Assembly: GCA_034408725.1 (NCBI GenBank)
Contig: JAWXCN010000263.1
Coordinates: 1 to 27,875 of the forward strand
Origin: Candidatus Hydrogenedentota bacterium
Lineage (GTDB): Bacteria > Hydrogenedentota > Hydrogenedentia > Hydrogenedentales > SLHB01
Length of the DNA: 27,875 bases
Direction: 5' to 3'
Below the pieces are notes generated by a model. The model had not been told where the DNA came from and ran no database searches. It saw nothing but the letters and a program-made list of their open reading frames with translations. Shown piece after piece: positions 1-14,594 of the stretch. Position 1 is the stretch's first letter. Every line of letters begins with the position of its first letter. A program made the translations under genes and the position numbers.

Positions 1-618
1 CTTTACAAACCGCTGCATCAGGCCCAGCATCAACAGAGAACTCGCGCCAACGGCAAGGGTTGCAGGTTGAAACGTGTGCGCCGCGGCCGCGTACGCCCCC
101 CATTTTGCGACGAATTCCGCAGGGATCGCCTCGATCCGCAATCCGAAAAATTCGCGCATCTGCGTCGAAAAAATAATGATCGCAATGCCCGAAGTGAAAC
201 CCGTCGTCACCGGGTACGGAATGAACTTGATCATCGCGCCGAACCGGGCGAGCCCCATGACGATCATGATCGCGCCCGCCATCAGCGTCGCCGTTGCAAG
301 GCCCGCAAACCCGTGGCGCGCCGCGATGCTGTACACAATGACGATGAACGCCCCTGTCGGTCCCGCCACCTGGACCCGGCTACCCCCGAACGCCGCTACA
401 ATTAACCCTGCGACGACCGCGGTGTACAGGCCCACCGCGGGCGGGGAGACGCCCTCGCTCGCCGCAACAGATTCGGGAATCGACGCAATGCCAAACGCCA
501 CCGCCAGCGGCAGCGCGATGATCCCCACCGTTACCCCCGCAATGATGTCCTTCGCAACCAACGCGCGCGTGTAGCCTTCGCGCCAACAAATCACGGACTT
601 GGGAAGAAGACGCGGCAC
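1..618 (-). CDS. SulP/SLC26 family anion permease (N-terminal part; runs off the window start)
   Basis: Not in the ORF track. Manual minus-strand translation from GTG at 618 gives VPRLLPKSVICWREGYTRALVAKDIIAGVTVGIIALPLAVAFGIAS...GLYTAVVAGLIVAAFGGSRVQVAGPTGAF...IKFIPYPVTTGFTSGIAIII, which has the SulP signature motifs. The frame stays open to position 1. Confidence 0.92.
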   Translation of the reverse strand, partial: MPRLLPKSVICWREGYTRALVAKDIIAGVTVGIIALPLAVAFGIASIPESVAASEGVSPPAVGLYTAVVAGLIVAAFGGSRVQVAGPTGAFIVIVYSIAARHGFAGLATATLMAGAIMIVMGLARFGAMIKFIPYPVTTGFTSGIAIIIFSTQMREFFGLRIEAIPAEFVAKWGAYAAAAHTFQPATLAVGASSLLMLGLMQRFVK

Positions 619-745
619 AGCTAAACGCCCAACACTGCGGGTGGTACGGGCTGATCACTATGGCGGTGCGCGCTCAAGGCCGAGAGCATACCCCAAATGG
701 GAACGCATCCTGAAACCGGCGGCCAATGCAAAAACGCCTCCTCGG

Positions 746-770
746 GTAGTGCGACAGATATGGTCGCTAC
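746..770. repeat. Short GTAG-type REP-like hairpin
   Basis: GTAG-T-GCGAC-agatatg-GTCGC-TAC; single copy in the window, near the left edge of the low-GC patch. Confidence 0.3.
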
Positions 771-1052
771 GGATGGGGCCGCGGTTTTGGTCTAAACAGG
801 GTGCCCGCTTCGACGCAGGTTTGGCGAGTACGCAATCGTGTTATCAAGAAGTTTCTGTCTGACCTGGGCCAGCAAAATCGCACCCGTGCCCCCGAATCTA
901 ATACCACTCAGGCACGCATTGGGATTCCGCAGCTTATGGGTGTTAAACTCATTGCTAATCACTCGAAAAATCTCCGTTGCAATTCCACGTGAGGTGGCAA
1001 ACGGCGTACAAATTATTTTGAGAATCGTGAGGAAGGTTGCAGGTTAATCCGC

Positions 1053-2321
1053 ATGGGAAAATCCGATAAACATATCGGGAAAGTAATCTCCGAGGCAAAT
1101 AGAAATCCAATTCCGATTCTCTACCCTCCCTCTGGTCGTTTAAAGAAATCGGCTCTTGCCATTGCAAGGTGTATCACCGGTCAAAAGCGGAGACAGGATA
1201 GCACTAGTTTCTCGGAAGCTCCTCGCTTTTTCATTCAAAGTCTGGGCGGAATTGGAAACACGCTCATGGCGACTCCACTGATTGCTGAAGTAAAAAGGAT
1301 TTATCCGCATGCAATGATCGACGTTTACACGACTTCGGCCGCAGCTACGCTTTTGCGACATAATTCAAATGTAAATGCAATTATGGAAGATCGTTCCGTG
1401 CAATCCAATTGGGGCGGTAGATTTGGAAAGATAATGGGCTCCAACTATCTATCTGTCATCGTGCAATTACGAAAAGCTCGGTACGACATCGCGCTACTCG
1501 CCGTTAATTCAATTGACATTAAAAGTGGATTGCGCCCTATTCTGTCGAAGATTCCAACTACAGTGATTCACGGCTATCCGTTTCGGCGAGAAGATGATTA
1601 TACGTTTTTATTTAGTCACATAGTTCCTTATTTGCATCAACATGACTGTGTGTCAAACCTTGATTTGTTAAGAGCCATCACAAATTCTCCCGTATGCAAT
1701 GCCCGAATGGAACTCAATATTCCTGCTCAGTACATCATGAGAGCACAAGGAATTCTGAAAGATAAACGAATAGACGAGAAAGTGCCGATAATAGGGATTT
1801 GTCCTGGTTGTCGCGATTGGGCTCGTGACAAAAGGTGGCCAATCGAAAAATTCGCTCGTTTAGTTAAAGAGGTGTTGTCGATGGATCGCGCCGTACAGAT
1901 CATGGCGGTGTGCGGCCCGCACGAAACGGCGGAAGCCAATGCATTGCAGAAGGCGGTTGTCGATGAACGTTTCGCCGTAGTCAATGATATTGATATATTG
2001 GATTTTGCAGCTGTATTGCAGAGATGCGCCGCAGTGGTTACCAACGATAGTTTGCCGATGCATCTTTGCTCATCGTTGAGTGTCCCTGTCGTTGCGCTTT
2101 TTGGTCCTACTGATCCCATTCGAGTGGGGCCGTGGTTATGTCCGTCGTCGGTTCTGAGTTCCACGGCAGAATACGCGCCCTACTTCAACATGCCTTACTT
2201 TAGCGATTTGGGAGTAGGTGATAATTGTATTGATACGATAGAAGTGGAGCATGTCTTGAGTGCCGTGATGAAATTACGCGAAGACCACGCGGCTTTAACT
2301 GAACGTGAGGTAGGTATATGA
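1053..2321 (+). CDS. Glycosyltransferase family 9 (ADP-heptose:LPS heptosyltransferase-like)
   Basis: GT9 motifs: SLGGIGNTLMATPLI, IGICPG...KRWPIEKFARL, VVTNDSLPMHL, PVVALFGPTDP. Confidence 0.9.
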   Translation: MGKSDKHIGKVISEANRNPIPILYPPSGRLKKSALAIARCITGQKRRQDSTSFSEAPRFFIQSLGGIGNTLMATPLIAEVKRIYPHAMIDVYTTSAAATLLRHNSNVNAIMEDRSVQSNWGGRFGKIMGSNYLSVIVQLRKARYDIALLAVNSIDIKSGLRPILSKIPTTVIHGYPFRREDDYTFLFSHIVPYLHQHDCVSNLDLLRAITNSPVCNARMELNIPAQYIMRAQGILKDKRIDEKVPIIGICPGCRDWARDKRWPIEKFARLVKEVLSMDRAVQIMAVCGPHETAEANALQKAVVDERFAVVNDIDILDFAAVLQRCAAVVTNDSLPMHLCSSLSVPVVALFGPTDPIRVGPWLCPSSVLSSTAEYAPYFNMPYFSDLGVGDNCIDTIEVEHVLSAVMKLREDHAALTEREVGI

Positions 2322-2944
2322 AATTGAAGAATAGACTGCAAGCGATCTATTGGCAGACGTTCCCGCATTATATTTATACGGTTTACAAGGCATATCGAGC
2401 TGGCGTCGGCATACCCGTGCCAAAAAAACTAAAAATACGTACAATTGAAGAATATGCGCGTCGGTTTGAATTGAAGGTTTTCGTTGAAACTGGAACGTAT
2501 AAAGGCGATACGATTCAGGCAACAAGGCACCTATTCGATGAGGTACATTCCATCGAACTCAGCGAGAGACTTGCATCGGATGCGACTCTGCGATTCACTC
2601 ATGATCCGCGAATAACGATTCATCAAGGTGACAGCGGGGAAAAGCTTAGTCAAGTTCTCAGCAATCTCACCAGGCCAACACTGTTTTGGCTTGACGCTCA
2701 TTATTCGGCAGGCGTAACCGCCCGGGGCGAACTTGATTCACCTATTATGCAGGAATTAGATGCAATCATTAATCATGGCGTCCATGGCCATATGATCCTA
2801 ATTGATGATGCTCGAGAATTCACTGGCGACAATGGCTATCCGACAATTGACCAGTTGTACGATTTTGTAATCGAAAAAATGCGTGGCTGGCGCATTCTTG
2901 CATACAACGATGTAATTAGAATCTGGCACCCGGATCCAGAATAA
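2318..2944 (+). CDS. Class I SAM-dependent methyltransferase-like protein of the type found in surface-polysaccharide loci
   Basis: Motifs VFVETGTYKGDT, VHSIELS, IHQGDS, LFWLDAHYS and ILIDDAR. ATGA overlap with the GT9 stop suggests translational coupling. Confidence 0.75.
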   Translation: MKLKNRLQAIYWQTFPHYIYTVYKAYRAGVGIPVPKKLKIRTIEEYARRFELKVFVETGTYKGDTIQATRHLFDEVHSIELSERLASDATLRFTHDPRITIHQGDSGEKLSQVLSNLTRPTLFWLDAHYSAGVTARGELDSPIMQELDAIINHGVHGHMILIDDAREFTGDNGYPTIDQLYDFVIEKMRGWRILAYNDVIRIWHPDPE

Positions 2945-2957
2945 TAGGAGCCTTCTA

Positions 2958-3926
2958 TCAAAATTGAGAACCTATCACCGCACCATCTCCATTTGCGGTC
3001 GGTAGAGTGGAATTGACCTTTAAAGTGCCGTCATCCTCGACGAACAGATACCAAATTGTCCCATTCGGCGACGCAAGTTTTATACTGCCAGGCGTATTGC
3101 CCCCGTCTCCTCGCGTCAGTGTAAGAATTCCTCGTGTAATGCTATCTTCTCCTGCAGTAACATCCCCGCCTTTTATTATGGCATCGCCAGAAGAAACCGC
3201 GTTGCCGGAGTTGTGATCAACTTCAAATTTGCTTGCACCGCTACTGTTGCGAAGATAAGTAGTCGGGTTTGTTCCAGCTTTAACTTCAAAAACACTGGTT
3301 GCCGTTCCGTCTCCGCGTCTAAGCAGAAAGCCAACATATCCTGATGTGCTTGTTGATCGGAAAAAATCGACCGAAGCTTGACCAACACCATCTTGTGGAA
3401 CCGGTTGAAAGCGAACGCTTGCATTTCCGGACGAACGTGTGTGAAAAAACTGTAATTGTGCTGCTGTTCCATTCGCGTCGAAATTTGCATTGCTGCCTGA
3501 CATAAATATTGATCCGGTGAAAGTGCCATTGGTAAATGTGCCGGAGTTCGGTGTTGTGGAGCCGATGGCGCCGGGTGTATTCCAGGGGATGGTGCTATTG
3601 GTGAGCAGTGGTCCGGTTGTGGCGCCGTTGATTTGGGCGTGGACGCCGGTGGTGGTTGTCCAGAGATCGCCATTTACCGGGGTGGTGGGAGCAGTGCCGT
3701 GGGGCAAGGAGATGCTTGCGCGCGCGGTTGAGGATGCTCCGGTGGTGAGTTTCCCGGTGGTTTGGATGTTGCCGGATTTGTCGATGTCGGTTCCGCCGTC
3801 GATGGAATCTGCGATGCCGCCGCCTATGACGAGTTCTTCGATGTAGCGTGGGGTTGGGCCGACCGCGGCAAGGGACACGATTGCGACGAGTGTTACAGCG
3901 GCGGCGGCAATCCATTTATTGGACAT
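2958..3926 (-). CDS. Secreted Gly/Thr/Ser/Asn-rich protein with phage tail-fibre-like motifs
   Basis: Preferred start ATG 3926 with AGGAGG RBS. N-terminus MSNKWIAAAAVTLVAIVSLAA looks like a signal peptide. Motifs GTAPTTPVNGDLWTTTTG, GAIGSTTPNSGTFT and C-terminal IKLASPNGTIWYLFVEDDGTLK resemble beta-rich trimeric fibre segments. Confidence 0.7.
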   Translation of the reverse strand: MSNKWIAAAAVTLVAIVSLAAVGPTPRYIEELVIGGGIADSIDGGTDIDKSGNIQTTGKLTTGASSTARASISLPHGTAPTTPVNGDLWTTTTGVHAQINGATTGPLLTNSTIPWNTPGAIGSTTPNSGTFTNGTFTGSIFMSGSNANFDANGTAAQLQFFHTRSSGNASVRFQPVPQDGVGQASVDFFRSTSTSGYVGFLLRRGDGTATSVFEVKAGTNPTTYLRNSSGASKFEVDHNSGNAVSSGDAIIKGGDVTAGEDSITRGILTLTRGDGGNTPGSIKLASPNGTIWYLFVEDDGTLKVNSTLPTANGDGAVIGSQF

Positions 3927-4016
3927 GACTGGGGTTCCTCCTGGGCTGGTTGGGCGTTGGGCGCCGATAAAAGCCTTCAATGATTAAGGGCAGGGTGTTG
4001 CACTGTGGGGAAGAAA

Positions 4017-4047
4017 GGGAGTGAGGAAGTGAGGAAGTGAGGGAGTG
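4017..4047. repeat. 8-nt tandem repeat (GGRAGTGA)x~4
   Basis: gggagtga ggaagtga ggaagtga gggagtg read directly. Confidence 0.85.
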
Positions 4048-4095
4048 CTTCCCGGCGGTGCTTGCTCATAGGGGTGTACGCACAACAAGGGTTGA

Positions 4096-4332
4096 CCATC
4101 TGTGATGAGCAGCCAAAGCGGCGCCTTGGGGGCCGCCGCAGTCTAAATAGGCTTTCTACTAAAACCTGGTGTTTGGAATGAGGACTATTTGGACTGCGGT
4201 GGCGGAGCGGATAGCGTAGACACCGCTTTGGCTGTTTATGGTCTATGACTTCGTGCGCGCATGGTAAGGGAAGGCCATCTGTGATGAGCAGCCAAAGCAG
4301 CGCCTTGGGGGCCGCCGCAGTCCAAATAGGCT
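4096..4332. repeat. REP/BIME-like cluster: direct-inverted-direct copies of a CAGCCAAAGCGG...GCCRCCGCAGTCCAAATAG element
   Basis: 58-bp direct repeat at 4096-4153 and 4275-4332 (2 mismatches). An inverted variant with a different central loop lies at 4185-4234. Confidence 0.85.
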
Positions 4333-4343
4333 CGCAGAAAATT

Positions 4344-4379
4344 GAAAAAGGCCAGCCGGGTTGCGGGCTGGCCTTTTTC
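4344..4379. terminator. Intrinsic (bidirectional-looking) terminator
   Basis: GAAAAAGGCCAGCC-gggttgcg-GGCTGGCCTTTTTC, a perfect 14-bp inverted repeat with A/T tails, 15 nt downstream of the DUF4189-like gene stop. Confidence 0.85.
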
Positions 4380-4393
4380 GCGCACGAATACTT

Positions 4394-4873
4394 TTAGTTC
4401 GATGACGCGCTGAATGAGCTGCCGCGGTTTTTGCCTTTTTCCCCGCCGGCTTTCCCGATAGTGTCTTCAAAGAGATCGACGATTTGGCAGTTTGTGCCGC
4501 CGGAGTCGCGGCATTCGCGCTTTGCTACGCGCTTGGCTTTTTTCTTTTTGTTGTACCCGAGCGAACCGCCGAGCCACCATGCTCCTCCGCCTTCATCGGA
4601 GAAGGCCACCGCGCCCCAACCGCCGTTCTCGTTCCCGAACCAGAATTCGGGATTGTCAGAACCGTTGCTGGCGCAGTCCGCAATTGCCGCGGCGCTTGCA
4701 GTCGCTTCGTCAACGCCGATGCCGTGGCCCGTCACACCGCTCTCGGGGTCCAGCGCGAGCGCGGCAGCGGCCCAGACTTCCACGCACACGAAGCACAGGC
4801 AGGTGATTACCGCGAGCGATTTCCACCAACCAGTTGCCTTGCCCGTTTCAATTTCATCGTGATCGTACGCCAT
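4394..4873 (-). CDS. Secreted DUF4189-like small protein
   Basis: ATG 4873 with AAGGAGG RBS and a hydrophobic N-terminal segment. Twice-repeated pattern (A-ALA...G...A...A...C...G): ATASAAAIADCASNG and WGAVA...AKRVAKRECRDSGGTNCQIV. Confidence 0.7.
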   Translation of the reverse strand: MAYDHDEIETGKATGWWKSLAVITCLCFVCVEVWAAAALALDPESGVTGHGIGVDEATASAAAIADCASNGSDNPEFWFGNENGGWGAVAFSDEGGGAWWLGGSLGYNKKKKAKRVAKRECRDSGGTNCQIVDLFEDTIGKAGGEKGKNRGSSFSASSN

Positions 4874-4997
4874 TCCGAATTCCTCCTTGCTAAAGATGGT
4901 TTCCCCGCTAGAACCGCACATTGAATACCGCAACACACATTTTGCACTACCAAAACCCATTTGTCGAGGGTGCAATTCCCGAATGGGCAGCCGGCAA

Positions 4998-5795
4998 TCA
5001 AGCGACGATGGCGGCGTGGGGGACGAGGGAAGTCTCGATGAACACGAGTGCGAACTGGGCGACCATGAGACCGTCGATCAGCATTTTCTGGGCGGAAAGC
5101 AAGGGAACGCCGGAGATTACTTTGCGCACGGCCCATGCGCAGGCCCCCAGGGAGGCCAGCAGCGCGAGCGCCGCCGCGACGGTGTAATGGCCAAACACGA
5201 GATTAAGGGCGACGCAGGCCGCTGACACGGCAAGCGCGGCGTCGATGGCCTGCAGCGTCCGGTGTTTGCCGAAACGCGTGGCGACCGTATGGAAGCCATA
5301 GCGCCGGTCGTCCTCCCGGTCGCAGAGGTCGTAGGCGAGTGCGAGAGCGGCAATGAACGAGGCGCGGCCGATTGCAAGTACGACGGCCGTGCCCCAAAGT
5401 TCGATGGGCAACGGAAGCAGGACCGTCACCGCGGACCACGCGAGCGCGATTGCAAGCGGCTTTATCATGAGCATCGAGCGCAACCCGGTATTTCCTGGGG
5501 TGTGCGCCCCGTAATAAAGTGCCCATATCCCGGCAGGCACGAGGGCTGTCCATTGCGCGGCGGCGGGCATGTTAAGAAAGCAGAGCACGGCGGCGAGGCC
5601 CGAAATCGCGGCAAGCCTGCGCGAGACGGGGCCCGTGCGAATGACGTTGTAGGCGAATACTGCGCCGCTAAACACGGCTCCCTCGACCCAACCCAGTTCA
5701 AGAGATTGCCCGAAGAGGAGCCGGGTTTGTTGCACGAGGGCTACGGCGCAACACCCGATCCAGCAGTAGCGGGCAAGGAGGAGAAAGATTGTCAT
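4998..5795 (-). CDS. UbiA-superfamily prenyltransferase-like integral membrane protein
   Basis: Multiple hydrophobic helices; Asp-rich second motif YDLCDREDDRRYGFHTVATRFG (D..D...D...G..T). The first Asp-rich motif is degenerate. Confidence 0.65.
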   Translation of the reverse strand: MTIFLLLARYCWIGCCAVALVQQTRLLFGQSLELGWVEGAVFSGAVFAYNVIRTGPVSRRLAAISGLAAVLCFLNMPAAAQWTALVPAGIWALYYGAHTPGNTGLRSMLMIKPLAIALAWSAVTVLLPLPIELWGTAVVLAIGRASFIAALALAYDLCDREDDRRYGFHTVATRFGKHRTLQAIDAALAVSAACVALNLVFGHYTVAAALALLASLGACAWAVRKVISGVPLLSAQKMLIDGLMVAQFALVFIETSLVPHAAIVA

Positions 5796-5807
5796 CGGAC
5801 TACCAGG

Positions 5808-5861
5808 TTGGACTCCATTTCGTTAAGAGGATATTATAGGCCCTATTTAGCGGCAGGGCAA
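5808..5861. promoter_or_regulatory. Overlapping divergent sigma70-like promoters (aconitase / UbiA-like gene)
   Basis: Plus strand: TTGGAC(5808)-18-TATTAT(5832). Minus strand: TTGCCC(5861)-17-TATAAT(5838-5833). The two -10 boxes overlap. Confidence 0.5.
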
Positions 5862-5878
5862 CGGTGAAGGACGGAGCA

Positions 5879-8152
5879 ATGGCCTTTGATTTGGAGATGA
5901 TTCAGCAGGTGTACGCGGGGTTAGCGGATCGCGTGGCCAAGGCGCGCACGCTGTTGGGCAGGCCGCTAACCCTGACGGAGAAGGTGCTGTACGCGCACCT
6001 TTTTCATAATGCGTTTCCGGCATCGCCGTTCACCCGCGGCGATTCCTACGTCGATTTCGCGCCCGACCGCGTCGCGATGCAGGACGCGACCGCGCAGATG
6101 GCGCTGCTCCAGTTCATGCAGGCGGGCCGTGCGAAAACGGCGGTGCCTTCGACGGTGCATTGCGACCACCTGATCCAGGCCAAGGCCGGCGCCGAAGAAG
6201 ACCTCAAGGCCGCGCTTGGCCAGAACAAGGAAGTCTATGATTTCCTTGCCTCAGTCTCGAATAAATATGGCATCGGGTTTTGGAAGCCTGGCGCGGGCAT
6301 CATTCATCAAGTCGTGCTTGAAAACTATGCGTTCCCCGGCGGCATGCTGATCGGCACCGATTCGCATACGGTAAACGCGGGCGGACTCGGCATGATCGCG
6401 ATTGGCGTCGGCGGCGCGGACGCAGTGGACGTGATGGCCGGCATGGCGTGGGAACTCAAGTTTCCAAAGCTGATCGGCGTTCACCTGACGGGCACACTCA
6501 ACGGTTGGACCTCGTCGAAAGACGTCATACTCAAGGTTGCCGGCATTCTCACGGTCAAAGGCGGCACAGGCGCAATCCTCGAATACTTCGGGCCGGGTGC
6601 GGAATCGATGTCATGCACGGGTAAGGGCACGGTTTGCAACATGGGCGCGGAAATCGGCGCCACGACTTCGATCTTTAGCTTCGACGATTCCATGGTGCGT
6701 TACCTGAACTCGACGGACCGGGCCGACGTGGCCAAGGCAGCAGAAGCCGTGCGCGAGCACCTGCGCGGCGATGCGGAGGTGTACAGCGATCCGGGCAACT
6801 ACTTTGATCAGGTCATAGAGATCAACCTGAGCGAACTCGAGCCACACGTCAACGGACCGTTCACTCCGGACCTTGCGTGGCCCATATCGAAGCTGGGCGC
6901 GGCTGCGAAGGAAAAAGGATGGCCGGTCGAGATCGAAGTGGGCCTCATCGGCTCATGTACGAATTCGTCCTACGAAGACCTCACGCGCGCGGCATCCGTG
7001 GCGCGCGAGGCGCGCGAACATGGTGTGAAAGCGAAATCGGAATACACGGTTACGCCGGGGTCCGAGCAGGTGCGCTATACCGTCGAGCGCGACGGAATTC
7101 TGGAAGAATTCGAGAGTATCGGCGGGGTAGTGCTTGCGAATGCGTGCGGCCCGTGTATCGGCCAGTGGGCACGGCATCGAAGCGGTGGCGACGATCAGCC
7201 GAATACAATTGTGACATCGTTCAACCGGAACTTTGCCAAACGAAACGATGGCAACCCGAAAACACATGCGTTTGTCACGTCACCGGAATTAACCACGGCG
7301 CTGGCGCTGGCCGGACGTCTCGATTTCAATCCGTTGACCGACACGCTGACGGGCAGTGACGGAAAACCCTTCAAGTTGACGCCACCGTCGGGTGAGGAAC
7401 TACCGAAGAAGGGATTCGCATGCGAGGACCCTGGCTATGTCGCGCCCGCAGCGGACGGGAGCAAAGTGGACGTCAGCGTTAAGCCAGGCTCGGACCGGCT
7501 GCAATTGCTTGATCCATTTGCGAAGTGGGAAGGCGGCGACATCAAAGGGCTCAAGTTGTTGTTGAAGGCGAAGGGGAAGTGTACGACCGACCATATTTCG
7601 ATGGCGGGGCCGTGGCTGAAGTATCGCGGCCATCTCGACAACATCTCGAATAATATGTTCATCGGCGCGATCAACGCCTTCAACGATACCGCGAATTCCG
7701 TCAAGAACCAGCTTACCGGCGTGTACGGTGAAGTGCCGGCGACGCAGCGCGCATACAAGGCGTCGGGAATTGGTTCGATTGTTGTCGGCGATGAAAACTA
7801 CGGGGAAGGGTCGTCGCGTGAACACGCGGCGATGGAGCCGCGGCATTTGGGCGTGCGCGCGATCCTCGTGCGGTCGTTCGCGCGCATCCACGAGACGAAC
7901 CTGAAAAAACAGGGAATGCTCGGACTGACCTTCGCGGATAAAGCGGATTACGACAAGATTCGGGAAGACGACGTAATCGATATCGCGGGCCTGAAAACGT
8001 TTGCGCCGGATGAACCGCTGACCGTCGTGCTGCACCACAGCGACGGCACGACGGATTCGTTTCCCGTGAACCACACGTATAACAGGAACCAAATCGAATG
8101 GTTCAAAGCAGGCGGCGCGCTGAACCTGATCCGCGCGGGAGTGAAGGCGTAG
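5879..8152 (+). CDS. Aconitate hydratase, mitochondrial-type (~757 aa)
   Basis: Motifs [49 protein letters not shown] and [12 protein letters not shown]. Start MAFDLEMI at 5879 after GGAG. Confidence 0.96.
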
Positions 8153-8177
8153 ATGCTGGTCCGCCGGATACGCACCG

Positions 8178-8235
8178 ATGAAATTCGAATGGGATTCCAA
8201 AAAAGTGAAACGGAAAGATATATGAAGAAGCGTAA
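8178..8235 (+). pseudogene. Collapsed BrnT-like toxin remnant
   Basis: ATG 8178 reads MKFEWDSKK, the typical BrnT start. About 10 nt later, in another frame, KIYEEA-TAA (8235) is the typical BrnT end overlapping the antitoxin ATG. The core of the gene is absent. Confidence 0.7.
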
Positions 8236-8473
8236 GGAAAATATGCCAGACGAGCTGCGGCCGAGCTATAAACGCTCTGATTTCACATCTGTAGAGCGCG
8301 GGAAGTACGCATCACGTTTGGCGAAAGAGTCCAATATCATCGTCCTTGATCCCGAAGTGGCAAAGGCGTTCCCCAACTAACGCGCGGTAAACCATGCCCT
8401 AAAGAAAATGATCGAAGTCGCCCGCGGAATGGCGCGAGATTCGGTAAAAAGAAGTTCCACGCGCAAACAGTGA
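8222..8473 (+). pseudogene. BrnA-like antitoxin with in-frame TAA
   Basis: MKKRKENMPDELRPSYKRSDFTSVERGKYASRLAKESNIIVLDPEVAKAFPN*RAVNHALKKMIEVAR...KQ*. The family pattern (LRPEY..RGKY..VVLDPDVA.AFP...AVN.AL) continues past the TAA at 8378-8380. Confidence 0.8.
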
Positions 8474-8618
8474 TTGCCCGCGCCATCCAGCGTGACTAGG
8501 GCATTCTTCACGCCCCCTCCGGCAAATTCGCCGTATCGTTTATCATCGCTCACCGCCATTGATCCCCAGGCGGCCAAGACCGCATGATAGCCGTCCACTC
8601 ACAAGGAAGGGGGCGTGC

Positions 8619-10445
8619 ATGGCTAAGAGCGCAGTTCGCCGGGTCGCGAAATGGCTGTTTGGAATCTGGTTGGTATTGATGATCGCGTTGGGCGCGGTGG
8701 CAGTCAACGTCATTTGGTTCAAGCCGTTTTCCATCGGCATTTTTTTCGAGCGCGTATTTCTGGAATACGCATTGATGAACCCCGAACTGCTGACCGACGT
8801 GCGGCTCCTCGAACCCTATGGCATTACAGGACACAACGCGAAACTAAATGACGCGTCGCCCGCGTTCGGCGAGCGCATGTGGGAGAAGGGCAAGCGCGAC
8901 CTCGATACACTGCACCGGTACGATCGCGCGAAGCTCAACGAGAACCAGCAGCTTTCCTATGACGTGCTCGAGTGGTACCTCGACGATGGCGTGCGGGCTA
9001 AGCCGTTTCTGTATCACGACTACCCAGTCAATCAGCTTTTTGGCGTGCAAAACGATCTGCCGACGTTCATGGCGATGAAGCACGAAGTGCGGTCGGCGCA
9101 CGACGCGGAGCAGTACATCACCCGGCTCGATGGTTTTCCCCGCAAGATGGAGCAAGTCGTCGAAGGACTGAAGTTGCGCGAATCAAAAGGCATCCTGCCT
9201 CCGAAATTTGTGTTTGCCAAGGTCCTCAGTGAGATGCGGGGATTTTATGGAGTGCCTCCGCAACAAAACATCGTATACACGGCGTTTCAAGAGAAGCTGG
9301 ACAAAAGCGAAATCCCGGATGCCGATAGAGAAGCGCTGCTGGCGCGCGTCGCGAAGGCGGTTTCCGAAAGCGTTTATCCCGCGTATGAAACATTGAACAC
9401 TCAATTATGCGACATGGAACTGCGCGCAACCGTGGACGATGGTGTATGGAAATTTCCCGAGGGTGATGCGTATTACGCGTACGCATTGCGCAGCCAAACG
9501 ACGTCGGATACGCCGCCCGCGGACGTACACGCGCTGGGCCTTGACGAAGTGGAGCGCATCACCGCGGAAATGCGCACGATTCTCGATGGGCTGGGGATGA
9601 CCGGAAAATCCGTCGGCGAGCACATGCGCGACTTGCAGGACGATCCACAGTTTCACTTTCCCAATAGCGACGAGGGCAGGGCGCAATGCATCGCCGAGTA
9701 CCAGGCGATTATCAATGAAATTGACGGCGGCTTGAGTGACGCATTCGATTTGCGCCCGAATGCCGGTGTTGAGGTCCGGCGCGTGCCGGAGTTCCGCGAA
9801 CAGGGTTCCGCCGGCGCGTACTACGAATCACCATCGCTTGACGGTGCGCGGCCCGGTGTATTTTTCGCCAACCTGCGGAACATGGAAGAAGTCTCGAAAT
9901 GGGGCATGCGCACACTTGCCTATCACGAAGCGATTCCCGGCCACCATTTTCAGCTTGCGATTCAGCAGCAGATTGACGCGCCGACGTTCCGCAAGGTGAT
10001 TCCCTTTACGGCATACGCCGAGGGTTGGGCCTTGTACGCGGAGCAGCTCGCGTGGGAACTCGGGTTTCAGAAAGACCCTTATTCAAACTTGGGCCGCTTG
10101 CAGGCCGAACTCTTCCGCGCGGCGCGACTCGTAGTCGATACCGGCATCCATTACAAACGGTGGCCACGTCAACAGGCGATTGATTACATGATGCAAACGA
10201 CCGGCATGGGTCCAATCGAAGTTTCCGCGGAAATCGAACGCTATATCGTGATGCCTGGCCAGGCCTGCGCCTACAAAATGGGCATGCTCAAAATCCTCGA
10301 GCTGAGGGAGAAAGCAAAAGCGGAACTGGGCGACAAATTCAGCCTGAAGGAATTTCACAACGCGGTAATTGGGAACGGTTCGTTGCCGCTGGAGATTCTC
10401 AAAAATGTGGTGGAGAGGTATATCGCGGAACGTAAGTCCTTGTAG
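8619..10445 (+). CDS. DUF885 family protein (HExxPGHH metallopeptidase-like), N-terminal membrane anchor
   Basis: Motifs TLAYHEAIPGHHFQ, AYAEGWALYAE, RAARLVVDTGIH, EIERYIVMPGQACAYKMG and FSLKEFH. ATG 8619 follows AAGGAAGGGGG. Confidence 0.93.
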   Translation: MAKSAVRRVAKWLFGIWLVLMIALGAVAVNVIWFKPFSIGIFFERVFLEYALMNPELLTDVRLLEPYGITGHNAKLNDASPAFGERMWEKGKRDLDTLHRYDRAKLNENQQLSYDVLEWYLDDGVRAKPFLYHDYPVNQLFGVQNDLPTFMAMKHEVRSAHDAEQYITRLDGFPRKMEQVVEGLKLRESKGILPPKFVFAKVLSEMRGFYGVPPQQNIVYTAFQEKLDKSEIPDADREALLARVAKAVSESVYPAYETLNTQLCDMELRATVDDGVWKFPEGDAYYAYALRSQTTSDTPPADVHALGLDEVERITAEMRTILDGLGMTGKSVGEHMRDLQDDPQFHFPNSDEGRAQCIAEYQAIINEIDGGLSDAFDLRPNAGVEVRRVPEFREQGSAGAYYESPSLDGARPGVFFANLRNMEEVSKWGMRTLAYHEAIPGHHFQLAIQQQIDAPTFRKVIPFTAYAEGWALYAEQLAWELGFQKDPYSNLGRLQAELFRAARLVVDTGIHYKRWPRQQAIDYMMQTTGMGPIEVSAEIERYIVMPGQACAYKMGMLKILELREKAKAELGDKFSLKEFHNAVIGNGSLPLEILKNVVERYIAERKSL

Positions 10446-10451
10446 CCATTG

Positions 10452-10494
10452 GCCTGATGCAGATTGAATATTGAATGTTCAATCTGTACCAGGC
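10452..10494. terminator. Hairpin between convergent genes (possible terminator)
   Basis: gcctgatgcagattgaata-ttgaa-tgttcaatctgtaccaggc, a 19-bp imperfect stem just after the DUF885 stop; no clear U-tract. Confidence 0.5.
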
Positions 10495-10582
10495 AGATTG
10501 CGCGGAGGCACTCGTCTACGGCGGCACGAAAAGCGCCTTGCGAAGCGGAACCGTTGTGTATTCGTGGCAGGACTGGCTATAG

Positions 10583-11380
10583 CTACATCTTCATTTTCTT
10601 GAATTGCCATTCCGGTATCGCCCGGATGATGAGCATGATATAGCGCCAGAACCAGGGGATGTAGGCAACATTTTTCCCGCGCATGATGGCATCATGCATG
10701 TCGCGGGCGGCGCGTTCGGGGGATGCGACGAGTGGGCCGGGCAGGGGCAGTCCCCAGGTCATTTTGGTGTCGACGAAGCCGGGCTTTAACGTGATTACGT
10801 GGACTCCGTGCGGGTGCAATCTATTCCGCAACCCTTGCAGGTAGGTCGTCATCGCGGCTTTCGACGCGCCATAGATGTAGTTCGACTGTCTGCCGCGATC
10901 GCCTGCGACAGATGAAATCCCCGCGATGAAACCCCGGCGCATGGGTTCGAGGTGCGCGGCAAACAATTCGCAAAGTGAAATGGTTGCGTTCACATTGACG
11001 TCGATGGTGCGCCGCGCGATCGCGAAATCTTTTTGCATAACCGGCTGTTCTTCCATGAACCCGAAGCCGAGCACGACACCTTCCAGCGAACTGTTTCCAT
11101 CGCGCACACACTCATCGACAAACGCGGCATGCGTCTCGAACGCTTCAGCATCAAAAGTTTTTGCGACAACCCGCACGCCGTGCCGCAGTTCGAGGTCGCA
11201 GGCGATAGCGTTGGTTTCCTCGCTGTCTCGCGCGCACACGATCAGGTCGTGACCGCGGCGCGCGAATTCACCGGCCAATGCGCGCGCGATGGCCGAGGTG
11301 ACCCCAAGAACAACGACAGTGCCCGGGCCCACGGCTATAGTGGCCGCGGTGGTCAGGGCGACAGAGTTGGCCGCGCTCAT
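10583..11380 (-). CDS. DprE2-like short-chain dehydrogenase (polyprenyl-phospho-ketopentose reductase-like)
   Basis: Motifs VLGVTSAIA, ISSVAGDRGRQSNYIYGASKA and KPGFVDTKMT. ATG 11380 overlaps the upstream TGA (ATGA). Confidence 0.85.
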   Translation of the reverse strand: MSAANSVALTTAATIAVGPGTVVVLGVTSAIARALAGEFARRGHDLIVCARDSEETNAIACDLELRHGVRVVAKTFDAEAFETHAAFVDECVRDGNSSLEGVVLGFGFMEEQPVMQKDFAIARRTIDVNVNATISLCELFAAHLEPMRRGFIAGISSVAGDRGRQSNYIYGASKAAMTTYLQGLRNRLHPHGVHVITLKPGFVDTKMTWGLPLPGPLVASPERAARDMHDAIMRGKNVAYIPWFWRYIMLIIRAIPEWQFKKMKM

Positions 11381-12747
11381 GGTTCGATTGCTCCATCGAC
11401 GATGCCGCAACGCCGCGCAAGCCGCGAAGATAATTTTTGGTTCGGATCGAGCTGTTGTTTCACCGCCTGAAATTCCTTCAAACGGGGATACATCGCCGCA
11501 AAAACTTCAGCGCGGGTGAATGCGTCCTTTGCCATGTACAGCCGGCCGCCGTGGCGCACTACAATTTCATCACAATCGTTAAGAAACGGCTCCAGATCGC
11601 GGGAAATAGGAATGTCGAGCGTCAGGGTCCATCCGTCGATGGGATGCGACAACATGCCTGGGCTCGAGGGGCCCATGCGCTTCAATACCGCGAGAAACGA
11701 CGCGCGGCCCGAGGCGCTCACTTTTTCGAGCAGCGCGCGCATGCCTTCAACGCCCGATAGCGGAAACGTCGCCTGGTACTGCGTGAAGCCTTTCTTTCCA
11801 TAGATACGGTTCCAATGATGAATGGCATCGAGCGGGTAGAAGTACGTGTTGTAGTCAATGATCTGTCCTTCGCGCGTGCGGTGCCTGGCATAGAACAATT
11901 TATTGAATAGGCCGATGCTCAACGGGTTCAACGCGAAACCCGGAAAATCGAACGGAACACCGGGCTGCAACCTGGACGGAACGGACAACGCATCGCCATG
12001 CGACGCTGGCAAACTTTCCGCGTCGACGTGGTCGCCGGACATCAGCACCGAACGGCCCAGCGATTTCCCTTTCGCAATGCAATCGACCCAGGCGACGGAA
12101 TACTTATAGCGATTGTCCGTTTCGCGAATTGAAGACAACACCGCATCGAAATTGGGACACTGCCGATAGTCCACGCGAATGTACGCGCTCGAAATGCGCA
12201 ACAGCCGGATGCGCGCGGTCAGGATGAAACCCGTCAATCCCGCGCCTCCGATGGTGGCCCAGAACACGTGCGCATTTTCCGACGGGCTGCACACGAGCAC
12301 GCTGCCCGTGGGAGTCAATAAGGTGAACTGATCGACGTGCTGTCCGAACGAACCGTCCACGTGATGGTTCTTGCCATGCACGTCATGGGCAATCGCGCCG
12401 CCGATGGTGACGAATTTCGTGCCGGGCGTGACCGGTAAAAACCACCCGCGCGGCACGAAGACTTCCAGAATTTCCGCGAGACTGACGCCCGCTTCGCACT
12501 CGAGCACACCCGCCATTTCGTCGAAGGTCAGCATCCGGTTTAAGCGCGTCGTGGTGATGACACCGCCGCCGGGGTTCACGGCGACGTCGCCATAGCTACG
12601 CCCCAGTCCGCGCGCGATGTACGTGGGTTGCTCGCCGTGTTCGAGGATTTCAGCGATACCGCGCCGCTTCTCAGGGCGAAACACGGCGCATTTCATGCGC
12701 GGCCATCGGCCCCATCCGGCGATTTCTTGTGTACTAAATTCAGGCAC
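11377..12747 (-). CDS. DprE1-like FAD-binding oxidoreductase (polyprenyl-phospho-ribose 2'-oxidase-like)
   Basis: Motifs ARGLGRSYGD, VTPGTKFVTIGGAIAHDVHGKNHH, YSVAWVD, FLAVLK, GGRLYMAKD and MYPRL. Confidence 0.88.
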   Translation of the reverse strand: MPEFSTQEIAGWGRWPRMKCAVFRPEKRRGIAEILEHGEQPTYIARGLGRSYGDVAVNPGGGVITTTRLNRMLTFDEMAGVLECEAGVSLAEILEVFVPRGWFLPVTPGTKFVTIGGAIAHDVHGKNHHVDGSFGQHVDQFTLLTPTGSVLVCSPSENAHVFWATIGGAGLTGFILTARIRLLRISSAYIRVDYRQCPNFDAVLSSIRETDNRYKYSVAWVDCIAKGKSLGRSVLMSGDHVDAESLPASHGDALSVPSRLQPGVPFDFPGFALNPLSIGLFNKLFYARHRTREGQIIDYNTYFYPLDAIHHWNRIYGKKGFTQYQATFPLSGVEGMRALLEKVSASGRASFLAVLKRMGPSSPGMLSHPIDGWTLTLDIPISRDLEPFLNDCDEIVVRHGGRLYMAKDAFTRAEVFAAMYPRLKEFQAVKQQLDPNQKLSSRLARRCGIVDGAIEP

Positions 12748-12819
12748 TCACGGATTCCTATCCTACTTCGGGGCGTAATCCTAAACGGATTCGCGCCTGG
12801 AGTCGAGTATCGCTCAGGG

Positions 12820-13911
12820 TCATCGCAGGATGCTGACACCCTTCACCCGCGCGTAGGCGTGCGCGCCGGTTTCCAACGAAAGATGATCGCGCGATCTGCG
12901 TGTTATTACCGAAAGCAGCAGATTCTGATCATCTCCCGTTGCCGGTCGAAGTTCCAGAACGACGCTACCGGGCGGTCTGTCCGCGATACCGGCAACCCGT
13001 ACGGGAAATTGGTTTACGATGCTGCTCTGCGTGTCGCGCGCGAGTCCAATGCTTACGTCACGCCCCGCAATCTGGAGGCGGACACTCTCGCCTGGTTGCG
13101 CGGAAATTTTCGATGCCCACACCGTGCCGAATGCCGTTTGGAGTTCAGACAGGTGATACGCGCCGTCGTGGCTCACGACGGTCGCATCGAGCACGGAAAA
13201 CACTTCTTCGTGCGTGATACCGGAATCGGTGTACACGCGGGGAAGGATTTCCTGAAGCGGTCCACACGCCACCAGGCGCCCTTCTCGCAACAGGAGCAAC
13301 GTGTCGGCGAGGCGGGCGAGTTCACGCAGGGAATGGCTCACATAAATCATCGGCACCGCGAGGTCCCGGTGCAACCTGTCGAGATACGGCATTAGTTCCG
13401 CGCGGCCGGGTTCGTCTAACGCCGCCAGCGGCTCATCCATCAGCAGCAGTTTCGGGCTCCTCAACAATGCCCGCGCCAGCGCCACGCGTTGCCGTTCGCC
13501 TCCGGATAATCCCGCGGGCATCCGGTCGAGCAGTGGCGCGAGGCCGGTCCATGCGATTGCCTGGTCCACCGTGATCGTGCGTTGCCGGGGCGAAAGCCGG
13601 TTGAAACCGTAGAGAATATTGTCGCGCACCGAAAGGTGCGGAAAAAGGCTTGCTTCCTGAAACACATAGCCCACACCGCGCGAATGCACCGGCATGAAAA
13701 TGTCTCGCTTCTCGTCTTGCCAGATTTCGTCGCCGATGACGAGTTCCGCGTCGCGTGCGCGCGTCAGCCCCGCAACGCACCGGAGCAGCGTCGTCTTTCC
13801 CGACCCGCTGTGCCCGAATACCCCCGTCACGCCGCCATTGGGAATAGTGAATGCGAGGTCGAGCGAGAAACCGCCCGGCGCCGTTTTGAACTGGCCGCGG
13901 ATCGTGCTCAC
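12820..13911 (-). CDS. modC: Molybdate ABC transporter ATP-binding protein
   Basis: Walker A GHSGSGKTT, GYVFQEASLFPHL, LSGGERQRVA, LLLMDEP and C-terminal TOBE domain; overlaps the modB stop. Confidence 0.95.
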   Translation of the reverse strand: MSTIRGQFKTAPGGFSLDLAFTIPNGGVTGVFGHSGSGKTTLLRCVAGLTRARDAELVIGDEIWQDEKRDIFMPVHSRGVGYVFQEASLFPHLSVRDNILYGFNRLSPRQRTITVDQAIAWTGLAPLLDRMPAGLSGGERQRVALARALLRSPKLLLMDEPLAALDEPGRAELMPYLDRLHRDLAVPMIYVSHSLRELARLADTLLLLREGRLVACGPLQEILPRVYTDSGITHEEVFSVLDATVVSHDGAYHLSELQTAFGTVWASKISAQPGESVRLQIAGRDVSIGLARDTQSSIVNQFPVRVAGIADRPPGSVVLELRPATGDDQNLLLSVITRRSRDHLSLETGAHAYARVKGVSILR

Positions 13912-14594
13912 CGCGATACCGTATCCGCGCGCCGGTTGATGGCGTAGACGAGGAGAAATACGGCAAACGAGAATACGAACATGCCCGCCGAGAGGATGTG
14001 TGCCTGCGGGTAATTCAGCGCCTCGACCGAATCGTATATCGCAATGGATACGACACGGGTGCTGCCGGGGATGTTCCCGCCGATCATGAGGACAACGCCG
14101 AATTCGCCCACCGTGTGCGCAAACCCGAGGGTAGCCGCGGTGAGTACGCCGCGCCGCGCCATCGGAAACGCAATCGAGAAGAACCGGTCCCAGGCGTTCG
14201 CGCCAAGCGTAGCCGCGACTTCCAGTGGGCGCTCACCCATTGCCATAAAGGCATTCTGAATAGGCTGTACCACGAACGGCAACGAATAGAGCACCGAACC
14301 AATGACCAGGCCCGGAAATGAAAACACGAGCCGCGGCCCGCCCCACGATTCCCAAAGCCCGCCAACGGGGCCGTGAGGTCCGAGCAAAAAAAGCAGGTAG
14401 AAGCCGAGGACCGTCGGCGGTAGCACGAGCGGCATCGCGACGAGGGCTTCGACAACGACACGTGCGCGGTTCCTGGTGCGCGCAAGCCACCAAGCCAGCG
14501 GAGTGCCCATAATCAACAGCACAACAACGCTCACCGCGGCGAGTTGCAGGGTGAGGAGTACGGGTGTCCAGTCGAATGCTTGCGCGTCAGGCAT
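13908..14594 (-). CDS. modB: Molybdate ABC transporter permease
   Basis: Motifs MPLVLPPTVLGFYLL, YSLPFVVQP and FAHTVGEFGVVLMIGGNIPG. Confidence 0.96.
   Translation of the reverse strand: MPDAQAFDWTPVLLTLQLAAVSVVVLLIMGTPLAWWLARTRNRARVVVEALVAMPLVLPPTVLGFYLLFLLGPHGPVGGLWESWGGPRLVFSFPGLVIGSVLYSLPFVVQPIQNAFMAMGERPLEVAATLGANAWDRFFSIAFPMARRGVLTAATLGFAHTVGEFGVVLMIGGNIPGSTRVVSIAIYDSVEALNYPQAHILSAGMFVFSFAVFLLVYAINRRADTVSR

Follow-up and report, generated by a model that had tools for sequence, protein, structure and literature searches.

How can the base composition of a bacterial chromosome break in the middle of an intact gene? This question is raised by a 27,875-bp stretch of a Candidatus Hydrogenedentota bacterium (contig JAWXCN010000263.1 of assembly GCA_034408725.1; hereafter the window), in which a fibre-like gene converges with a glycosyltransferase gene and a methyltransferase gene. 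The source genome (G000) measures 5.17 Mb in 280 contigs and is 92% complete, the window being its contig C263. With a probability of roughly 0.7, the fibre-like gene is an in-frame chimera that arose by motif-guided replacement of its distal part, which was imported together with the glycan-modifying enzyme pair. The features on which this reading is built are the following.

2958-3926, minus strand: fibre-like gene, 322 aa plus stop, an intact open reading frame (ORF) and proposed in-frame chimera; the 322-aa form is database protein P0001
3531-3926, minus strand: part with host-type codons (codons 1-132), GC content at third codon positions (GC3) about 0.70, holding a hydrophobic helix, a PRYIEEL motif, a shaft module and the junction motif
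2961-3530, minus strand: part with island-type codons (codons 133-322), GC3 about 0.35, holding a variable middle and a conserved C-terminal module
3531-3575, minus strand: junction motif PGAIGSTTPNSGTFT, residues 118-132, most positions invariant in the subfamily alignment
784-945 (best 895): left boundary of the low-GC segment, between sulP and GT9, from a likelihood change point with its 2-lnL interval
1053-2321, plus strand: GT9-family glycosyltransferase gene (Pfam PF01075), 422 aa in the longest ORF, with a possibly later true start
2318-2944, plus strand: small class-I S-adenosylmethionine (SAM)-dependent methyltransferase (MT) gene, 208 aa, with a 4-bp overlap (ATGA) at the GT9 stop

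The low-GC segment extends over about 2.65 kb (approximately 895-3540) and has a GC content of 0.460 (900-3499) compared to a genome mean of 0.570, a value equalled or undercut by just 0.15% of the 2500-bp windows of G000. In 200-bp windows, the GC content lies at 0.38-0.52 for positions 901-3500 and at 0.58-0.63 for positions 3501-3900. GC3 amounts to 0.437 for the GT9 gene and 0.426 for the MT gene, against 0.66-0.76 for the flanking host genes. Inside the fibre-like gene, 30-codon windows give a GC3 of 0.63-0.77 over codons 1-130 and of 0.23-0.43 over codons 141-280, and a likelihood change point on GC3 (0.356 vs 0.705) places the right edge of the segment at 3540 (2-lnL interval 3492-3561, codons 122-145). 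Synonymous usage was also scored as a per-codon log-likelihood ratio between nine host genes of the window and the GT9 and MT genes together. Codons 1-130 have a mean of +0.187, near the range of the host genes (+0.19 to +0.25), and codons 131-322 a mean of -0.275, near the values of GT9 (-0.276) and MT (-0.231). The change point on this scale is codon 132 (coordinate 3530), with a statistic that none of 2000 permutations of the codon order attains. In the permutation controls, the statistic was reached in 31-122 of 500 permutations for four host genes and in 2 of 500 for the DUF4189 gene. The codon-usage break thus lies directly behind the motif GAIGSTTPNSGTFT (residues 119-132). A first-pass annotation had placed a GC breakpoint inside the intact gene right behind this motif, and both change points agree with it. 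The strong contrast between host-type and island-type codon usage narrows the junction down to about 25 codons, a resolution rarely attained. Both compositional deviation and absence from close relatives, the marks of a genomic island, are found for the segment.

No intragenic GC3 step was found in five homologous genes (L026, L061, L062, L063 and L069); since these homologues from other genomes have a uniform GC3, the step cannot be ascribed to the family as such. Nor is it a join made during assembly, because other assemblies cross the junction without differences: a 3611-bp metagenome contig (L024) is identical to window positions 643-4253, a 41.6-kb metagenome contig (L025) matches 726-13926 with one single-base gap, and a Logan contig from another run covers 728-4123 with zero differences. 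Independent assemblies (the 41.6-kb contig and Logan contigs of run X1) stop at 726/728, about 170 bp to the left of the GC change point, and L024 ends on this side at 643. These breaks may mark strain variation at the left flank of the island; no alternative joint was recovered. The read depth of flank and island differs in some Logan runs, in depths that sum over other organisms.

The homologues of the fibre-like protein fall into three groups. Five proteins of 321 aa (P0002-P0006) are colinear with it at 53-68% identity. Some twenty further homologues of about 250-420 aa, several of them titled Hydrogenedentes, have only both ends in common with it, with 35-50% identity over the first 60 residues or so, 60-69% over the last 75 or so and an unrelated middle (12-27%). 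The third group consists of many proteins with one short module in common. Within this family, the junction motif coincides with a module boundary. In P0008 (451 aa), residues 13-132 are matched at 48% identity, the similarity ends exactly after ...SGAFT and it resumes at residues 255-321 with 63% identity; the 250 residues in the middle carry a Laminin_G_3 (concanavalin-A-like lectin) domain (E 2e-16). The same arrangement is seen in P0328 (459 aa). The retention of residues 1-132 and of the C-terminal module around a lectin-like middle, in P0008 as in P0328, shows that modules do meet at residue 132. P0334 (597 aa) combines the same anchor with three shaft-module copies and a distal part that is unrelated. 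The core IGSTTPxxGxF also occurs at repeat boundaries, in three copies with a 78-aa period in P0007 and three copies with a 54-aa period in P0079; it was found in 8 of 80 homologues of the first search and in none of 58 viral carrier ORFs. Given the other distal parts behind the motif in P0008, P0328 and P0334, the family exchanges sequence distal to it, in line with the earlier suggestion that the motif is an exchange point. The window gene bears the compositional scar of one such exchange.

The exchange, however, does not appear to have brought in a new domain. The identities of P0002-P0006 to residues 1-135 and 136-322 of the window protein are 0.62/0.71, 0.59/0.70, 0.58/0.65, 0.57/0.53 and 0.50/0.53, respectively. 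As these five homologues are colinear and no phylogenetic incongruence was found, the swap is of like with like and not a new domain combination. Therefore, of the first-pass proposal that a host-like N-terminus had been joined in frame to an incoming module with a new tip, the in-frame joining to an imported distal part is borne out by codon usage and the novelty of the tip is not, P0002-P0006 being colinear over the full length. Nor is the variable part a distal tip: the family is best conserved at its extreme C-terminus and varies in the middle.

The following course of events is proposed. A foreign segment of about 2.65 kb (approximately 895-3540) would have entered the Candidatus Hydrogenedentota chromosome, with the left crossover in the sulP-GT9 spacer and the right crossover at about codon 132 of a resident gene for a cell-anchored trimeric protein, behind PGAIGSTTPNSGTFT, the motif which in this family separates a constant anchor-plus-shaft from a variable distal part. 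Codons 1-132 would be resident and codons 133-322 imported along with the convergent GT9-MT operon. The event was presumably homeologous and motif-guided, the resident distal part giving way to that of another allele from the subfamily in the manner of phage tail-fibre genes; the donor allele would stem from a lineage with a very different codon usage.

What kind of protein was altered in this way? No Pfam, NCBIfam or PHROG match was found for the fibre-like protein, and the family profile gave no match to PDB chains at E<=1. Three further features of the gene are relevant here.

3864-3920, minus strand: N-terminal hydrophobic helix, residues 3-21, in the AlphaFold (AF2) model and conserved in the family alignment
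3606-3770, minus strand: shaft module (LPHGTAPTTPVNGDLW...), residues 53-107, from homology to viral contigs
2964-3197, minus strand: C-terminal module (...WYLFVEDDGTLKV...), residues 244-321, conserved across the family

The helix is predicted to be either a signal peptide or a signal anchor and is followed by a conserved PRYIEELxIGGG stretch. The shaft module was found at 48 loci on IMG/VR contigs, with 45-73% identity and at varying positions of ORFs of 239-1322 aa, and it is repeated inside P0007, P0334 and P0335. The C-terminal module, 60-69% identical among otherwise divergent family members, was found at 10 IMG/VR loci with 49-58% identity, at the C-terminus of the ORF. In a PHROG scan of 30 of the 58 viral carrier ORFs, 16 were matched at E<=1e-5 and 14 remained unmatched; the match was to a tail-category PHROG (tail fibre, tailspike or minor tail) for 14 of the 30, and for 13 of the 25 shaft-module carriers scanned. 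The N-terminal part with helix and PRYIEEL was found in none of the 12 viral loci retrieved with family patterns.

The AF2 monomer is moderately confident, with a predicted local distance difference test (pLDDT) score of 71 and a predicted template modelling (pTM) score of 0.37, and its weak fold matches lean to T4 gp34/gp37, the Mu fibre and other tail fibres. A homotrimer model of three copies of residues 25-322 scores 0.88 (best of three controls, 0.00); among proteins solved as one-chain pairs 20 of 30 attained this mark, among single-chain ones 1 of 23, a calibration unlike the three-copy case, and likeness to solved fibres may raise the score. The trimer runs agree in at least 97% of the contacts, with a partner pLDDT of at least 88. 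The tightest contacts involve residues 107-145 and 250-272, the junction motif among them. Based on the modules shared with viral contigs, the trimer model, the N-terminal helix and the non-phage context, the protein is probably a fibre made by the cell itself, N-terminally anchored, trimeric and composed of phage fibre modules. The earlier description as fibre-like is thus upheld by modules in common with tail-category proteins and by a trimer model which passes its controls. It is likely a surface adhesin of which the distal part binds carbohydrate.

Matches to the family were obtained in 29 of the 40 relatives searched, among them 22 of the 24 genomes of the same taxonomic family, with one to four matches per genome and one copy of the gene in G000. 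A subfamily profile search retrieved 4506 representatives at E<=0.001 among 1.84 billion, 111 of them at E<=1e-30. The homologues of the same genus (G001-G004 and G013) have 34-39% identity and stand in other contexts, with no sulP, GT9, MT or DUF4189 gene nearby. No recurrent neighbour was found among 19 related fibre loci compared, and no phage, tailocin or contractile-injection cluster in the fibre-locus windows examined. In the literature searched, no work linking Hydrogenedentes to tail fibers was found. The proteins form an unnamed family of probable cell-anchored fibres, widespread in the uncultured phylum Hydrogenedentota.

In G003, a CBM_4_9 protein gene and a radical-SAM/SPASM gene lie upstream of the fibre homologue (L063 7296-12525, G003:C343), and the downstream side holds a 126-aa ORF and then a Phage_capsid_4 gene, two genes from the fibre homologue. 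This neighbourhood could be phage- or encapsulin-related.

The glycosyltransferase belongs to family GT9, with 99.3 bits to PF01075 (cut-off 22) over residues 134-378. All six NCBIfam heptosyltransferase equivalogs matched stay below their cut-offs, the best being TIGR02195 with 108.9 vs 134.6. The nearest solved chains are 3tov and WaaF (1psw), with WaaC chains also matched at E<=0.01, and the best homologues are 48-50% identical. A second GT9 gene of G000 (35% identity) stands beside a polysaccharide flippase-type gene on C234. Because of the ATGA overlap, GT9 and MT are probably co-translated. The MT scores 14.7 bits with Pfam Methyltransf_24, below the cut-off of 26.3, while its family profile matches methyltransferase chains in the PDB (1yub with E 5e-4, 3ntv and 1vbf). 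Its Atlas structure rows give template modelling (TM) scores of 0.80-0.84 to class-I SAM methyltransferase clusters, and rhamnosyl O-methyltransferase/CmcI-type and phage groups are among the clusters of its feature search. Judged by these sequence and structure matches, the MT is a class-I SAM methyltransferase of a large unnamed family, with 3571 homologues at E<=0.001. The family was found in 153 stretches of viral contigs (31-48% identity in the 80 loci retained). The MT itself was found, at E<=1e-20, in one of 135 genomes of the phylum, namely G000. G000 has LpxC; its gmhA-like and rfaE-like matches to the ADP-heptose pathway fall below curated cut-offs. GT9 and MT likely add a sugar, possibly methylated, to the lipopolysaccharide (LPS) core or to another envelope glycan.

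The stop codons of the convergent MT and fibre genes are only 13 bp apart (2944-2958), and no terminator-like site lies in between, so the two transcripts may overlap.

The segment is flanked by the following genes.

1-618, minus strand: 5' part of sulP (sulfate permease), from ORF and Pfam/NCBIfam matches
4394-4975, minus strand: DUF4189 gene, separated from the fibre-like gene by a 467-bp spacer
4998-5795, minus strand: UbiA-like prenyltransferase gene
5864-8152, plus strand: aconitase gene

The remaining genes encode DUF885, dehydrogenases, a molybdate-type ABC transporter, the 2-oxoglutarate dehydrogenase complex, signal peptidase II and citrate synthase. The gene content of the 27.9-kb window is central metabolism with zero phage genes, as had been remarked at the outset, and no tRNA was found in it. 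In the spacer upstream of the fibre-like gene, an interspersed repeat of about 80 nt is present in two direct copies (4074-4153 and 4253-4332) and one inverted copy (4185-4239). It has 92 blastn matches over the G000 contigs, often clustered, with the local copies 150-400 bp 5' of the fibre start codon, and looks like a repetitive extragenic palindrome (REP) or miniature inverted-repeat transposable element (MITE). As this genome-wide repeat lies upstream of the start codon, the 5' side of the fibre gene appears to be long resident. Several assemblies end within the repeat (about 4123-4303). A terminator-like hairpin on the minus strand (4344-4379), with a 14-bp stem followed by a T run, lies directly 3' of the DUF4189 gene; the fibre gene should therefore have its own promoter within 3927-4343. 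The DUF4189 ORF shows the heterogeneous internal codon usage seen in the permutations (2 of 500), and its annotated start may sit too far upstream, since the Pfam domain spans residues 120-174 only.

The first-pass annotation had pointed to the sulP-DUF4189 interval in related genomes as a place for comparison. In G003, the sole genome comparable, the sulP-UbiA interval (L022 12452-16381, G003:C405) holds other genes, for a 255-aa membrane protein and a 663-aa regulator-like protein (named by sequence), and GT9, MT, fibre and DUF4189 genes are all absent from it. The whole sulP-UbiA interval differs between the species. Within G000, low-GC islands of defence type occur elsewhere.

C32:~69000-75000, C251:~7200-11400, C120:~800-7300 and C51:~38500-44000: low-GC defence-type islands (loci L251-L254)

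Their cargo comprises a kinase with an ORC/CDC6-like gene and a DNA methylase, DUF4062-PPDK, Schlafen AlbA_2, and ABC-3C CTD10/DUF2326; a 1384-aa LVIVD/BACON surface protein and a glycan-modification cluster (C212) are also found in low-GC islands of this genome. Against this background, a low-GC islet with sugar enzymes is ordinary in G000. The unusual feature is an island edge inside an intact gene, at a module boundary.

A number of observations weigh against the proposed replacement and co-import, including several on linkage given further below. P0002-P0006 cross the junction without indels, which counts against the version with a new tip. The imported part is barely closer to P0002-P0004 (0.65-0.71) than the resident part (0.58-0.62), and the pairwise identity matrices group alike in both segments, i.e. 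there is no phylogenetic incongruence between them. No integrase-like ORF was found in 1-8000, and no direct repeat common to the two edges. In the Logan contigs of four runs, which drop rare variants, neither an alternative allele nor a joint skipping the segment was seen. As no donor sequence was retrieved, composition alone indicates how and in which direction the exchange took place, and classical homologous recombination would be less easy because a GC3 of 0.70 vs 0.35 would mean a low DNA identity between the presumed parental alleles. The structural comparisons of the fibre are weak: Foldseek gave a best E of 0.018 in the PDB, with no fold match at E<=0.001, and a best E of 4.7e-4 with a TM of about 0.2 in BFVD, and the exhaustive structural alignment (VIA wide) gave Z values of at most 7.5, within the chance range.

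As to linkage, the best GT9 and MT homologues pair on contigs of equal size (413001, 9244, 834412 and 2531 bp). The size of 9244 bp is also that of the longest contig listed for P0002, the best fibre homologue, with identities on it of 68% for the fibre homologue, 57% for the MT and 48% for GT9. The trio appears to co-occur once more on this contig, as far as the equal size indicates. For the 413001-, 834412- and 2531-bp contigs with GT9 and MT, no fibre homologue is listed in the word-seeded search. The loci among the metagenome matches listed are L024 and L025 (the same sequence as the window), L026 and distant relatives. L026, the P0006 locus and closest among the fibre loci listed, has no GT9 or MT within 10 kb. 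The earlier claim that fibre and enzymes were imported together is plausible; the contigs that have the pair and no listed fibre homologue count against the trio as a unit.

Glycan-synthesis genes (GT4, sugar epimerases/dehydratases, Wzy_C and PMT_2) were found at most two genes from the fibre homologue in 6 of 15 loci; for control loci placed arbitrarily on these contigs, the count was 3 of 20 (Fisher one-sided p = 0.10). The category was set with the data in view, and the genomes, being related, are not independent. This neighbourhood is a hint only. All in all, that fibre and enzymes function as a pair is rather improbable, if well short of negligible.

Side by side with these results stand some observations on individual loci. 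In L066 (6675-9275), a gene for a PMT_2 + CBM_4_9 protein (867 aa) adjoins the fibre homologue, and in L067 (6057-9047) one for a Wzy_C + TPR protein (997 aa). Both the PMT_2 and the Wzy_C family include enzymes of protein O-glycosylation. The epimerase and GT4 genes downstream in L026 have 74% and 62% homologues on contig C217 of G000, but at this presumed orthologous position no fibre gene is present. A viral version of the cassette was also sought and rejected: in none of 138 viral loci is the MT accompanied by a homologue of the fibre or of GT9.

Among the other explanations, co-transfer without any coupling survives best, with somewhat less than an even chance of being right. GT9 and MT would then be an ordinary envelope-glycan islet, for the LPS core or a polysaccharide, and the end of the import would have hit a patch of similarity in the fibre gene by accident. 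The contigs which carry the pair with no fibre homologue listed (413001, 834412 and 2531 bp) and the surroundings of L026 are consistent with this, as are the flexible-genome cargo of the other low-GC islands, including the C212 cluster, the LpxC gene, which makes LPS available as an acceptor, and the glycan-gene neighbourhood, which is not significantly enriched. It fits less well with the 9244-bp contig, listed for all three homologues, and with an imported tract that runs unbroken from GT9 through the distal part of the fibre with similar codon usage throughout.

A second possibility, which is unlikely, is that of an enzyme and its substrate. The autotransporter heptosyltransferases TibC and Aah glycosylate their partner proteins, and in the same manner GT9 might glycosylate the Ser/Thr/Asn-rich fibre and the MT cap the sugar, the cassette moving a part of the fibre with its cognate enzymes. 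GT9 and the fibre gene are neighbours and co-imported, PMT_2 (L066) and Wzy_C (L067) adjoin other fibre homologues, and the MT aligns to a GT2-containing 822-aa Atlas cluster with a TM of 0.74 by query. Against this, the PDB sequence matches of GT9 at E<=0.01 include no TibC-type chain and are led by 3tov and 1psw, no glycosylation sequon or repeat was identified in the fibre, and PMT_2 is also present in 1 of the 20 control loci.

Decay of a prophage, with the three genes as last survivors of a tail-fibre and serotype-conversion region, is very improbable. Both fibre modules and the MT family do occur on viral contigs and a fibre homologue in G003 stands two genes from a Phage_capsid_4 gene, but the central-metabolism genes around the segment include zero phage genes, helix and PRYIEEL are conserved throughout the family, which 22 of 24 related genomes possess, and this part was matched in 0 of 12 viral loci, the MT accompanies a fibre or GT9 homologue in 0 of 138 viral loci, and the 5' part of the fibre gene has host codon usage. 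Finally, the absence of any recombination can practically be dismissed: contigs of metagenome-assembled genomes can be chimeric and the N-terminal part is richer in Gly/Ala/Pro/Thr codons, which might suggest an assembly chimera or selection on codon usage or amino acids inside one native gene, but the step is in synonymous usage (GC3 and codon choice per amino acid) and extends into two further genes, homologues lack it and three other assemblies cross the junction without differences.

Motif-guided replacement with co-import, the preferred explanation, has its closest known counterparts in mosaic phage fibre genes and in the MAT fibres of Bdellovibrio, in likeness only and with no membership claimed. 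T-even and P2 phages are the classical cases of an exchange of tail-fibre parts. Tail-fibre and tailspike genes of phages (T4-type gp37/gp38; E. coli tailspikes) are reported to be mosaic and to exchange receptor-binding parts at conserved motifs (PMC3157838, PMC10408124). The window gene would resemble these in its in-frame distal exchange behind a short conserved motif, in the shaft and C-terminal modules it has in common with tail-category proteins on viral contigs and in the predicted trimer. Unlike them, it is chromosomal and stand-alone, outside phage, tailocin or contractile-injection clusters, with a hydrophobic helix in place of a baseplate-attachment domain and with a conserved C-terminus and a variable middle.

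Prophage serotype-conversion modules adjoin tail-fibre or tailspike genes. The enzyme pair of the window likewise adjoins a fibre gene in opposite orientation and has a foreign composition; in contrast to such modules, no phage, integrase or att site was found with it, and the enzymes are a GT9 and a small SAM MT, not Gtr-type enzymes or acetyltransferases. Low-GC islands of the flexible genome can carry surface-polysaccharide genes. The segment is like them in its compositional deviation, its absence from relatives and its glycan-enzyme cargo, and unlike them in having an edge within a gene, at a module boundary, with the gene left intact.

As reported for Bdellovibrio bacteriovorus, the mosaic adhesive trimer (MAT) fibres are phage-like trimeric fibres which the bacterium makes for its own surface, one member binding surface glycans (PMC10769870). 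They have a conserved, beta-rich N-terminal domain of about 130 aa after an export signal and varied distal domains, for which tip swapping has been proposed, and the set comprises 21 genes with constructs spanning about 1000 residues (PMC10769870). Compared to these, the window fibre has an analogous layout of a constant N-terminal part and a varied distal part; it differs in its 322 aa, its conserved N-terminal stretch of about 60 aa and the one to four family matches per genome. No S74 domain was detected in it, another difference from MAT, and no predatory lifestyle is known for the window organism, unlike Bdellovibrio. The structural matches to the C-terminal domains of Bd2439 are weak (Foldseek E 0.16; VIA Z 5.6 with a root mean square deviation of 3.9 over 99 aligned residues).

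A motif-guided swap of receptor-binding parts is textbook knowledge for phages. Cell-made phage-like fibres have so far been reported for a predatory bacterium (PMC10769870), and the window locus would be a third setting, in which one allele has been caught as a clean in-frame chimera, with an imported part that came with sugar-modifying enzymes. It is conceivable, but doubtful, that fib(133-322)-MT-GT9 is a matched 'reader plus writer' unit, in which the fibre binds or avoids the glycan that GT9 and MT install on the surface of the cell itself; phage-derived, membrane-anchored trimeric fibres would then serve as glycan-recognition organelles and the unit as a transferable code for kin recognition, self-masking or aggregation in microbial mats. 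A functional linkage would make the locus a testable case of surface 'reader' and 'writer' genes transferred together. Failing that, the locus would still be a well-resolved case of a flexible-genome island remodelling a surface protein.

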